From the UHGV virus genome UHGV-1575775: a DNA stretch of 19,468 bases. One strand, given 5' to 3'. Under the pieces are notes generated by a model. It ran no database searches. It worked only from the letters and a program-made list of their open reading frames with translations, and was not told the origin of the DNA. The position numbers and the translations under genes were made by a program. Numbering within the stretch: position 1 is the stretch's first letter; every line of letters starts with the position of its first letter. This document shows positions 5,186 through 6,671 of the stretch, in pieces. Origin of the DNA: a virus.

Positions 5186-5974
5186 CTTTGGCTGGTTATC
5201 CACCGTGGACGGGGAAACAAGGAGAAATGAATGGACTGATATAACCATTTCCCCGCGTGCGCTTAGCCGCATTCACCGCAACGGAAAGAGCATTCTTGGT
5301 GGACCTGTAGATTGGGATATGAACCCGTTACAGGAGAATGCTCTTACCTGTTACGTGCTCCGTTTCGTGGAGCTAACGGCGGGGGATTGGGCCGCACCAG
5401 GCTGGACTTATTTCAGCGTTATGCTCATGCCAGAGAATCAAACTGTGATGGTCGGTGCTGAACTCCGACACAGGGTTGTAGCAAGCCCCGCAAAGCGCGC
5501 ACTACTGTAGTTGCGGCACATCAGCCTGTGCATTCACCACAATGTTGAGAACACTGGTTGTCACGCTGCAACGCAACATTTATTCGTAGATTGGGATATG
5601 ACCCCGTTACGCCAGTGTTCTCAACGTTGTAGTGCCGGTTACGGTTCCGGCCAGGCCTCTTCCTCAACGGGGTGTTCTCCATACGGACTACCGTTTATTG
5701 GTCGTTCCTGCGGTTTATGTTGTGAAGCCAGATGCTTATCTTCTGGTTGCTTCAAAGAGCTGCACTTCATCACAACGGTAAGAGCACTCGATGCATTTAA
5801 GCCAAGCCCCATAAGGGAGAATGCCCTTACCTGTTGTGTTGTGATGACCGGTGCTGATCTCCGGCTTGCGGTTATTTCAGACTCTCACGGGCGTTTAATT
5901 GCCCCGCCGAACAGCTCTTTTCCGCAATAGCTGCAATGTCTTTCGCGCATCAGCCTGCGCATTCATCACAACGG

Positions 5975-6050
5975 TAAGGGTACTTCGTAGGGATTCGAAC
6001 CCTCTGCCAAGCTCGGCGATCTCCGACGTCGCAAAATACCCTTACCTGTT
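5975..6050 (-). ncRNA. tRNA-like element or possible tRNA pseudogene inside hairpin module 4
   Basis: Minus strand contains a canonical T-arm (GGGTTCGAATCCC with loop TTCGAAT) and a D-arm-like GCGA...TCGC, closed by a long stem rather than a 7-bp acceptor stem. No convincing anticodon arm was found, and the element abuts the tRNA-Thr 3' end. Confidence 0.3.
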
Positions 6051-6054
6051 GTGC

Positions 6055-6130
6055 TGGTGCCGATTAACGGACTCGAACCGCTGACATCCTGCTTACAAGG
6101 CAGGCGCTCTACCAACTGAGCTAAACCGGC
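6055..6130 (-). tRNA. trnT: tRNA-Thr (anticodon UGU)
   Basis: Minus-strand 76 nt GCCGGTTTAGCTCAGTTGGTAGAGCGCCTGCCTTGTAAGCAGGATGTCAGCGGTTCGAGTCCGTTAATCGGCACCA gives a full cloverleaf with anticodon loop CTTGTAA and encoded CCA. Confidence 0.9.
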
Positions 6131-6132
6131 AT

Positions 6133-6208
6133 TGGCGATGGTGGATGGATTTGAACCATCGACCCGTTGATTAACAGTCAACCGCTCTAACCGCTGAGCT
6201 ACACCATC
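6133..6208 (-). tRNA. trnA: tRNA-Asn (anticodon GUU)
   Basis: Minus-strand 76 nt GATGGTGTAGCTCAGCGGTTAGAGCGGTTGACTGTTAATCAACGGGTCGATGGTTCAAATCCATCCACCATCGCCA gives a cloverleaf with anticodon loop CTGTTAA, discriminator G and CCA. It lies 2 nt upstream of tRNA-Thr. Confidence 0.9.
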
Positions 6209-6671
6209 ACTTGCCGGGTACGTCTCCGGCGAGGGCTTCCACCTCCGTATGCTTTTCGGCGCACCGCGCCCTGGCTGCAATTCGGTAACAGGGGATGCAT
6301 AACCCTGGCTTCCAGCGTGATTAGCGCTTTCAGCATGACGGGATATACCCGTAAATTCGTGGAACTGTACCCAAAGTGCTGTTAAGCACCGCTGTTACGC
6401 TGAAAAGAAGACGCAACAGGAAAGGACGCTGACCAACAGATGGCCCCTTCTCGTTCATCTGGTTAATCACACCAGCGCCCTTACCTGTTGTGCCTCCCCG
6501 TTCCCTAATACACAGACGGGGACACTCTGCGGTCGATTTTTTGACGGGGGACGACTCATACCCCGTGGCGTCTGGCTTCTTAGGCCGCTACCATCATCAG
6601 ATCATCGTTTGCATTTACTTTAATGGTCAGTTTCTAAACCGCCGCAAAGTCGCTAACCATGACGAAAACCC

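Follow-up and report, generated by a model that had tools for sequence, protein, structure and literature searches.

The 19,468-nucleotide (nt) stretch of virus genome UHGV-1575775, hereafter the window at its full length, carries five long hairpins (M1 to M5) at positions 5270-6492; a first-pass annotation, made from the letters alone, had described positions 5253-6491 as an array of structured modules. Judged from sequence comparison, the hairpins are genuine RNA structures, conserved in evolution and formed by the minus strand of a P1-like phage. They belong to a widespread and apparently uncatalogued family of modular non-coding RNAs (ncRNAs), whose members in many enterobacterial phages neighbour tRNAs, a known prophage small RNA and a tmRNA-like tag template. 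The relationship to P1 is close, with 98-99% identity over positions 5100-6900 to the P1-like phages vB_EcoM-813R1, RCS47 and P1. All five modules were found where they had been placed, and the RNA of each folded far better than dinucleotide shuffles. The long-stem modules, with their minus-strand folds and their scores with a covariance model (CM), are as follows.

M1: 5270-5355, minus strand; arms 5336-5355 and 5270-5295; fold -41.9 kcal/mol, z -2.9; CM 33.4 bits.
M2: 5531-5634, minus strand; arms 5612-5634 and 5531-5557; fold -57.8 kcal/mol, z -5.9; CM 23.1 bits, E 4e-4.
M3: 5765-5838, minus strand; 5' arm 5819-5836/5838, 3' arm and junction 5765-5789; fold -37.8 kcal/mol, z -5.0; CM 44.1 bits.
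M4: 5960-6053, minus strand; arms 6037-6053 and 5960-5982; fold -50.9 kcal/mol, z -5.4; CM 50.8 bits.
M5: 6412-6492, minus strand; arms 6473-6492 and 6412-6431; fold -48.5 kcal/mol, z -5.9; CM 14.4 bits, E 0.04.

The minus-strand energies of M1-M5 ranged from -38 to -58 kcal/mol with z-scores of -2.9 to -5.9, and in each case the plus strand folded more weakly. When the 921-nt stretch 5140-6060 was folded as a whole, M1-M4 were retained and z was -8.3; positions 6209-6411 (z -1.4) and the tag domain of P1 described below (z -0.6) folded no better than their shuffles. A repeat finder likewise picked out the arms common to the modules, their junction and the pairing of arm with arm; in its output M5 corresponds to inverted repeat I2 and M2 to I1 (23 nt, 91%). 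The covariance model was trained on homologues from elsewhere, with the M4 sequence itself in the training set. A search of the whole window with this model on both strands gave nothing at E < 0.5 outside 5239-6513, and the model also matched the last hairpins of units A and C (see below).

The long stems share one plan, in which CACAAC, a bulged A and GGUAAG... on the 5' side face ...CUUUCC and GUUGUG on the 3' side, with a hypervariable tip on top. The stems are predicted to be 19-23 bp long with one bulge and one mismatch, and would span the roughly two turns of double-stranded RNA (dsRNA) that RNase III requires. The 3' base of the hairpin continues into a GUUGUGRUGAAU junction and then into a second closed domain; the modules of the first-pass annotation are the 5' halves of composite elements. 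Its attcaYcRcaa linker proved to be the reverse complement of the junction UUGYGRUGAAU and held for the array except at M5, which lacks the GUGAAUG junction. The second domains are of the kissing-loop type (units A and C), minimal (unit B) or like the small RNA (sRNA) STnc100/PasD with a terminator (unit D).

Unit A: 5838-5972, minus strand; kissing-loop domain, identified from inverted repeat I18, identity to lambdoid and Stx phages and covariation.
Unit B: 5719-5776, minus strand; minimal closed domain, its hairpin set by the CM alignment on the model's last hairpin.
Unit C: 5442-5543, minus strand; second kissing-loop domain, identified from direct repeats D2 and D7 and a CM match at 5443-5514 (15.1 bits).
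Unit D: 5149-5282, minus strand; STnc100/PasD-like sRNA domain, matched by Rfam RF02076 (37.8 bits, E 5.8e-6).

In unit A, the closing stem is formed by GUUGUGAUGA (5963-5972) and UCAUCACAAC (5838-5847), two strands that lie 125 nt apart. Hairpin 1 is GCGCA-GGCUGA-UGCGC (5945-5960), the last hairpin is GCCGG-AGAUCAGCA-CCGGU (5847-5865), a variable middle lies between them, and the loop sequence GCUGA of the one is complementary to UCAGC in the loop of the other. Positions 5837-5973, between M4 and M3 and without a long hairpin, are 96-98% identical in lambdoid and Stx-converting phages. Unit C has the same arrangement, with hairpin 1 as GCACA-GGCUGA-UGUGC (5516-5531), the last hairpin as GUCGG-AGUUCAGCA-CCGAC (5451-5469) and closing strands AUUGUGGUG and CAUCACAGU (5442-5450). 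These two first hairpins are the mini-hairpins with plus-strand loop tcagcc (minus-strand GGCUGA) noted at first reading, and the difference between their stems, gcgca/tgcgc versus gcaca/tgtgc, is a true compensatory change that recurs in other phages. Unit B runs from GUUGUGAUGAAG through the hairpin CCAGAAGAUAAGCAUCUGG (5728-5746) to CUUCACAAC (5719-5727). A homologue of unit B in Salmonella phage SPN9CC (L007 2495-2560) reads GAUGCGAUGAAU...CCAGAAGAUAAGCAUCUGG...CAUCGCAUC and lies directly upstream of the ribosome-binding site of an N-like antiterminator gene. Unit D is closed by GCGGUG/CACCGC and ends with CACCGGGAGGCACCCGGCACCGCA (5160-5183) and a U-run (5149-5159), an intrinsic terminator that closes the array. 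Its match to RF02076 is below the gathering score of 47 and covers model positions 31-147 only; the closing stem, the 5' hairpin after GAAU, the terminal GC hairpin and the U-run of STnc100 are all present. The same model gave no match to units A-C or to the hairpins.

The GUUGUG strand has two alternative partners, the 5' CACAAC of its own hairpin and the 3' CACAAC of the next domain, and the two pairings are mutually exclusive. In M1 and unit D all three strands have changed consistently (CGUAAC / GUUGCG / CACCGCA), and in contig L109 the downstream partner alone compensates.

We counted covariation in an alignment of 55 distinct elements, with the variable tip and middle swapped for linkers and both alternative structures taken into account. 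Pairing was kept in 95.3% of cells, compared with 29-54% in slid controls; two-sided changes occurred at 16 of 34 pairs, and none of 500 shuffles reached any observed measure. They were found in the upper stem of the hairpin (9/13 pairs), the first hairpin (2/5), the last hairpin (3/5, including CCGG/CCGG to CAGG/CCUG), the loop-loop pairing (2/5) and the closing stem (2/8, plus four one-sided changes); alignment columns 37-52 were set by the search pattern, which left little room for variation in the lower stem and in part of the closing stem. Three sequences, all from one lineage, showed the loop-loop change from GCUGA/UCAGC to GUCGA/UCGAC. In the stem, 44 of 55 elements keep a U-U mismatch, and the bulged A is conserved too. 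The comparison thus supports selection on secondary structure, which had been suspected from arm differences among the five modules.

The strand had been left undecided at first, owing to a C-A mismatch in M2. We assigned the minus strand to all modules because it folds better, because the tRNA genes and the promoter Pban lie on it, and because U-G pairs are strand-specific: at one position a U-G pair is present in 39 of 55 homologues, which fixes the RNA strand. Moreover, the M2 mismatch is recent, since phage D6 is Watson-Crick there, and the question is settled. The annotation of P1, carried over through 98% identity, puts the array on the minus strand: the C1-repressed promoter Pban and a 'dicF-like region' lie upstream of it, and the cargo genes, a CAU-anticodon tRNA and ban follow downstream. 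Neighbouring features on this strand are the following.

Start of the transcription unit: 6674-6893, minus strand; C1 operator and Pban promoter, 'dicF-like region' and intrinsic terminator, from transferred P1 annotation and a terminator scan.
tmRNA-like tag domain: 6496-6673, minus strand; tag frame 6580-6612; Rfam tmRNA_permuted 24.1 bits.
tRNA-Asn(GUU): 6133-6208, minus strand; ARAGORN and Rfam tRNA (74.5 and 72.9 bits for the two tRNAs listed here).
tRNA-Thr(UGU): 6055-6130, minus strand; ARAGORN and Rfam tRNA; together with tRNA-Asn inside the hairpin array.

The C1 operator motif ATTGCUCUAAUAAAUUU is at 6877-6893, and the terminator scan placed the intrinsic terminator of the 'dicF-like region' at 6674-6700. 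The Rfam DicF model had no match to this region (6674-6800, minus strand) at E up to 10. Transcription from Pban has to cross the terminators at 6674-6700 and about 5149-5183 before it reaches ban.

Although the arms are conserved in pairing, the tips differ. M1 has the arms CGUAACAGGUAAGAGCAUUC / GAAUGCUCUUUCCGUUGCGGUGAAUG and carries ACGGGUUCAUAUCCCAAUC (5310-5328) in its tip; M2 has the arms CACUACAACGUUGAGAACACUGG / CCAGUGUUCUCAACAUUGUGGUG, diverged in sequence with pairing kept, and carries ACGGGGUCAUAUCCCAAUC (5589-5607). The arms of M5 are CACAACAGGUAAGGGCGCUG (5', 6473-6492) and CAGCGUCCUUUCCUGUUGCG (3', 6412-6431), under a tip with the hairpin GGUGUGAUUAA. M4 begins 2 nt past tRNA-Thr, its 3' arm continues into the junction GUUGUGAUGAAUG, and its tip consists of the hairpin GCGACGUCGGAGAUCGC and a canonical T-arm AGGGUUCGAAUCCCU (5989-6003); phage BUCT554 and some viral contigs have the same tip. 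From M4 to tRNA-Thr and from there to tRNA-Asn, successive T-loops are exactly 78 nt apart (5991-6157; direct repeat family D8), and because of this spacing M4 is placed, on sequence grounds, in the slot of a third tRNA. A T-arm-like motif had been reported for M1, M2 and M4; it is canonical in M4 only. The loops of M1 and M2, UUCAUAU and GUCAUAU, lack the usual A at T-loop position 58 of a GGUUCGAAUCC-type loop, and their 'GGGTTCATATCCC' is part of another recurrent motif of 19 nt, ACGGGNUCAUAUCCCAAUC.

We then scanned viral contigs with the junction CCGTTGTGRTGAATGC, and this pattern was present in at least 120 contig stretches. The recurring plan is CACAAC-A-GGUAAGAGCAUUG, a tip of 27-128 nt, CAGUGCUCUUUCC-GUUGUGGUGAAUG, the first hairpin, a middle of 27-258 nt, the last hairpin and CACCACAAC. 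A second element type, to which unit D belongs, ends in CACCGGGAGGCACCCGGCACCA and is Rfam's STnc100. Altogether, 91 distinct full elements were built on one plan of stem, variable tip, junction and closed domain, and they carried 81 distinct tips, 14 with a T-arm-like motif as in M4, six with the M1/M2 motif ACGGGNUCAUAUCCCAAUC and 62 with neither. The module precedes different domains, namely kissing-loop, STnc100-like and tag domains. The element was found in 165 phage records, of Klebsiella, Escherichia, Salmonella, Cronobacter, Enterobacter, Erwinia, Hafnia, Edwardsiella and Pantoea, in 1060 of the 5426 complete E. coli genomes, at 719 places on chromosomes and 478 on plasmids, and, two doubtful contigs aside, in species genomes across Enterobacterales. 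Conserved RNA structures are thus densely packed in this stretch, and the interchangeable parts of which they are built occur in other phages of Enterobacterales as well.

The phages that carry the element belong to several families, among them lambdoid, Stx-converting, N4-like and Ackermannviridae phages. In the temperate phages mEp460, Stx2a_WGPS2 and EPP-1, it lies in a gene-free leader of 0.8-1.1 kb that follows the repressor gene directly and opens the early-left operon; in N4-like IME11 and the Ackermannviridae phage T751 it shares islands of 2-3 kb, free of genes, with tRNAs and tRNA-like pieces. The islands of these virulent phages are at L005 1472-4809 (Klebsiella phage T751) and L130 1496-3582 (IME11). 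Their tRNA-like pieces lack an anticodon arm and lie at about L005 2140-2205 (GGCGAAG...CUUCGCCA) and L130 2725-2792 (ending GCCGGAACCA), and the T751 island holds a full-length STnc100 match above the gathering score at 3997-4211. In Bas80 the parts form one compact unit, with a strong promoter match (TTGACA-17-TAGATT), a tag domain, a long-stem module, a kissing-loop domain, tRNA-Met and a terminator-like hairpin whose U-run was judged by eye; no credible open reading frame (ORF) was found in this unit. Because the tRNA-Met is part of the shared unit, cutting of the Bas80 transcript is required at least for the tRNA.

Modules have been exchanged between phages. The break-points of module gain and loss lie in the conserved arms, as seen when positions 5765-5972 are compared with relatives. 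Canonical P1 (L001) lacks unit A and M3, as does D6 (L004), which carries a tRNA-Ser and other tips, and Ro157c2YLVW (L003) has an additional tRNA-Tyr in the array.

Given this arrangement, we tentatively propose, at somewhat less than even odds, a role for the hairpins as stems that serve the processing and insulation of a polycistronic non-coding RNA. They would lie on one long, almost wholly untranslated minus-strand transcript, the leader of the ban operon started at Pban, and would punctuate independently folding RNAs, namely the tag domain, two tRNAs, two kissing-loop domains, the minimal domain and the STnc100-like sRNA. The long stem would form first during transcription and sequester the GUUGUG strand; a double-strand-specific nuclease, most likely the host RNase III, would then cut the stem and part the neighbouring units; and the freed GUUGUGRUG would pair with CAYCACAAC at the far end of the next domain, giving paired and protected termini. 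The sequence comparisons establish the structures and their strand, conservation and covariation, the mutually exclusive pairings, the exchange of modules between phages and, in the compact Bas80 homologue, signals of co-transcription. From these we infer the cleavage, the enzyme and the order of events, and we prefer such a sequential model mainly because of the GUUGUG coupling between the hairpin and the next domain. Small-RNA function and processing by RNase P or RNase E, as suggested at first reading, are plausible.

There are precedents for such processing. RNase III and RNase E release DicF from the transcript of the dicB operon, and rRNAs are excised at long flanking stems. The stems of the rRNA operon, of T7 early RNA and of DicF/dicB resemble those of the array in being long, near-perfect and set between functional RNAs with tRNAs, as well as in phage context, and a 'dicF-like region' heads the same P1 operon. 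They differ in that the stem base in the array is conserved in sequence (bulged A, U-U) and encloses a variable tip, not a functional RNA, and in that cleavage of the array stems is a prediction. The 5' end of PasA, a related prophage sRNA, has been reported to arise from cleavage of a longer transcript (bioRxiv 10.64898/2026.05.13.724894). If the processing model holds, it would supply a concrete rule, open to testing, for the packaging, processing and exchange of small RNAs and tRNAs by phages, add a covariation-supported RNA family that curated libraries lack, and point, through the tmRNA-like tag described below, to a possible phage grip on ribosome rescue; it would also correct the annotation of upl and plp.

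Several observations weigh against the processing model. The participation of RNase III is purely conjectural. The stem base is conserved in sequence, with its fixed bulged A and U-U mismatch, and might just as well be a tertiary contact or the site of a sequence-specific protein as a generic double-strand target. In the 55-sequence set the lower stem CACAAC/GUUGUG, in columns fixed by the search pattern, shows only one-sided (G-U) changes. The supposed single transcript contains two intrinsic terminators (6674-6700 and about 5149-5183), and tRNA processing needs no such stems. A T-run is present at most 25 nt upstream of the hairpin in 20 of 84 kissing-loop-type elements with a recognisable 5' arm, and a terminator follows within about 90 nt in 34 of 93 kissing-loop elements; many copies may be parts of discrete small-RNA genes and not punctuation of long precursors. 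In the examples from L118, L120 and L102, the terminator follows a recurring tail of about 75-80 nt (...CCCACUACCUGGGACC...).

These points bear on a second reading that we consider possible but distinctly less probable than not, in which the hairpin and the downstream domain act uncut as one structured ncRNA, an enlarged relative of Hfq-associated STnc100/PasD. Its scaffold of stem, junction, kissing loops and closing stem would present the hypervariable tip and middle for base-pairing with targets or for binding by a host protein, and a conserved scaffold with variable inserts is expected if targets diversify. The conserved irregularities of the stem, the match of unit D to STnc100, the full STnc100 in the similar RNA island of T751, and the intrinsic terminator close behind about a third of the kissing-loop elements, as in sRNA genes, all agree with this. 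However, none of units A, B and C ends here in a terminator, and they are arrayed with tRNAs that require excision; domains of unrelated kinds, the tag domain among them, can likewise follow the hairpin; and the GUUGUG strand is unable to join both helices simultaneously. We rate it improbable that the elements are instead a cis-acting antitermination or anti-Rho device, like HK022 put or rRNA boxA, that carries Pban transcription over 1.7 kb of untranslated RNA and two terminators to ban. Such a device would fit the leader position at the head of the early-left operon in temperate phages, the repressor-controlled promoter upstream in P1, the two terminators between Pban and ban and, by eye, the terminator straight after the element in mEp460. 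The 3' arm is usually UGCUCUUU, the core of the rRNA-operon boxA, whose consensus is UGCUCUUUAACAA. But these letters are paired and covary with the 5' arm (UUUCCUUUCC, GGCGCCUUUCC, UAAUCUUUCC) and the AACAA part is absent; no single-stranded conserved boxA close to UGCUCUUUAACAA was found, only UGCUCUUU within the stem, its first half covarying. Further, M5 lies downstream of the first terminator, the stand-alone non-coding unit of Bas80 has no protein gene to antiterminate, and virulent N4-like and Ackermannviridae phages carry the element. In HK022 the rightward promoter, too, is followed by a put site (PMC9378689), but the element occupies one place per listed phage record (two in one record), and a search for four short motifs taken from it found none of them together in the HK022 early region.

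The chance that the modules are decayed tRNA genes, or neutral recombination scars of a tRNA cluster kept by linkage, appears very small. M4 does start just behind tRNA-Thr at the 78-nt T-loop spacing, extra true tRNAs occur in the arrays of relatives (the tRNA-Tyr of Ro157c2YLVW and the tRNA-Ser of D6), and a T-arm-like motif is found in 14 of 81 tips. Yet ARAGORN and the Rfam tRNA model (E up to 10) recognised three true tRNAs only and none of the modules, and the conserved stem and junction are found in no tRNA. Because 62 of 81 tips have neither motif, the T-arm does not define the family, and tRNA decay does not explain it. The family persists in unrelated phage families, and compensatory changes across many lineages indicate continuing selection, by which the decay reading offered at first is largely refuted. 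Least probable, at the level of a bare outside chance, is that the palindromes act as DNA, as protein or recombination sites or a miniature mobile element, or that the region encodes the P1 proteins Upl and Plp. Modules are indeed gained and lost at break-points in the arms, what lambdoid phages share is exactly unit A, and upl and plp are annotated in P1. Against protein-binding DNA palindromes, which had also been put forward, G-U pairs on one strand only make the structure strand-specific (U-G in 39/55), and the loop-loop and closing pairings are sensible only in RNA; the equal pairing on both strands without RNA-only contacts that marks DNA palindromes such as REP, attC and miniature mobile elements was not seen.

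The coding reading fares no better. In P1, Upl and Plp are annotated antisense to the structured RNAs (5181-5930, plus strand), and to this extent the region is not free of annotated genes as first described; by Pfam and ORF tests it is non-coding. No ORF in 5181-6825 had a Pfam match. The first 93 residues of the P1 Plp ORF are kept, while its C-terminal third is lost or changed where modules differ; the sequence is cysteine-rich and without a signal peptide. The NCBI pipeline annotates no gene here among the listed rows of E. coli P1-like plasmids. Since Pfam is silent and the Plp C-terminus follows module content, upl and plp are probably not genes, and an ordinary conserved protein-coding region, the outcome that was to have spoken against the array, was not what we found. 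P1 is among the best-studied phages, and the 1.7 kb that head its ban operon have so far been annotated as two doubtful proteins or nothing; P1-like phage-plasmids are present in about a tenth of complete E. coli genomes.

Some further candidates were dropped. A boxA/boxB (nut-like) reading had been based on UGCUCUUU followed 14 nt on by a 5-bp hairpin; it was given up because the letters resembling boxA covary within a helix and the loop of that hairpin is paired to another loop. HK022 put was set aside, with no motifs shared in the HK022 early region. A hammerhead-like CUGAUGA in hairpin 1 was noticed by eye; the core flanks are not conserved across the family, and there is no Rfam ribozyme match.

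Among known RNAs close to the elements are STnc100/PasD (RF02076), with which they share a closed domain with pairing ends (UGGUG...CACCA), a GAAU junction followed by a hairpin, the terminal CCGGG-AGGCA-CCCGG hairpin and a phage or prophage site near tRNAs, and unit D is a relative. The differences are that the Rfam model has no long-stem module, that unit D scores below threshold, and that units A and C have other hairpins and a loop-loop pairing which the model does not match. M4 and about one sixth of the family's tips resemble YrlA and other T-arm mimics in that a long stem ends in a canonical T-arm, and several adjoin tRNA genes; the Rfam YrlA and tRNA models nevertheless miss the modules, most tips have no T-arm, and there is no acceptor end. 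Like HK022 put, lambda nut and boxA, the elements are promoter-proximal in temperate early operons and show boxA-like UGCUCUUU and then a small hairpin. They differ from lambda nut and boxA in that the boxA-like letters are paired and covarying, the hairpin loop is engaged in the kissing pairing and the element occurs in units without protein genes, and from HK022 put, which consists of two stems in about 70 nt (PMC9378689), in sequence and architecture. With the P1/P7 c4 and P4 CI antisense RNAs, they would share being small structured RNAs excised from longer phage transcripts, but Rfam C4 (RF01695) and c4-a1b1 (RF03163) had no match in 3800-7000 at E up to 10. Rfam 15 holds no model for the long hairpin or for the kissing-loop domain, and nothing relevant to the element sequences, to tmRNA-like RNAs of phages or to transcripts of P1 came up in full-text literature searches. 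Taken together, the elements are of a known kind, phage-borne structured small RNAs, while their architecture and modular use appear undescribed in the literature searched.

The domain that precedes M5 on the minus strand is a strong lead for a tmRNA-like tag template, short of a finding and read from sequence. Its frame GCA AAC GAU GAU CUG AUG AUG GUA GCG GCC UAA encodes ANDDLMMVAA*, with the resume context UAAAU|GCA as in tmRNAs, and its conserved 5' part, GGUUUUCGUCAUGGUUAGCGACUUUGCGG, is at 6642-6670. Further likenesses to tmRNA are a tag of 10 codons with an Ala/Val-Ala end and a stop, the position of the stop in a small hairpin loop, and weak matches to three Rfam tmRNA models; with tmRNA_permuted the window scored 24.1, IME11 33.1 and Bas80 27.9 bits, against a gathering score of 47. 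Four further tags, ANDDVVLMAA, ANDDLMLMAA, ANDEQFLAVA and ANDNTFLAVA, were found in related phages in the same setting. Among close pairs the tags differ by 13 synonymous versus 4 non-synonymous changes, and the hairpin after the tag has three compensatory pairs. Of the 5426 complete E. coli genomes, 561 carry the P1-type tag sequence, nearly all of them on a P1-like plasmid.

Unlike tmRNA, the tag domain has no acceptor stem, T-arm or G3-U70 pair, and in the Rfam alignment a 14-nt loop replaces the tRNA-like domain. No tRNA-like domain for the tag template was found upstream, downstream or in the hairpin tips, ARAGORN was negative, and a simple local alignment of the tag domain with E. coli ssrA was not above shuffles. 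The tRNA-like pieces of T751 and IME11 were rejected as this domain, as they lack the alanine identity pair. A census of tmRNA genes in 2014 listed, among the phages examined, only mycobacteriophages and Bacillus phage G (PMC4131195). It is a rather unlikely but conceivable extension that the hairpins punctuate a phage 'RNA operon' of look-alikes of host translation RNAs, carried by many enterobacterial phages and shuffled in cassettes. In it the tag template would derive from a tmRNA and, having lost the tRNA-like domain, would have to act in a new way, either as the two-piece partner of another array RNA or as a decoy for ribosome rescue in the host, and the kissing-loop domain would be a new RNA class.

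In mEp460 (L002 2380-2500, minus strand), the intrinsic terminator seen by eye after the kissing-loop domain is followed, before the first early-left gene, by a further long hairpin with other arms (ACAGAGAAGAGCA.../...GUGUUCUUCUCUGU) and an M1/M2-type motif. Matches to IsrK (67 bits, above threshold) and C4 / c4-a1b1-like matches at L002 4980-5137 and L132 40-129 adjoin the antirepressor genes of mEp460 and Stx2a_WGPS2 and are unrelated to the array. In the window, the cargo between the array and the CAU-anticodon tRNA (4082-5126, minus strand) comprises an ORF of 78 aa and a protein of the SPFH/Band-7 family (Pfam E 1e-30), and P1 has tciA, tciB and tciC in their place.

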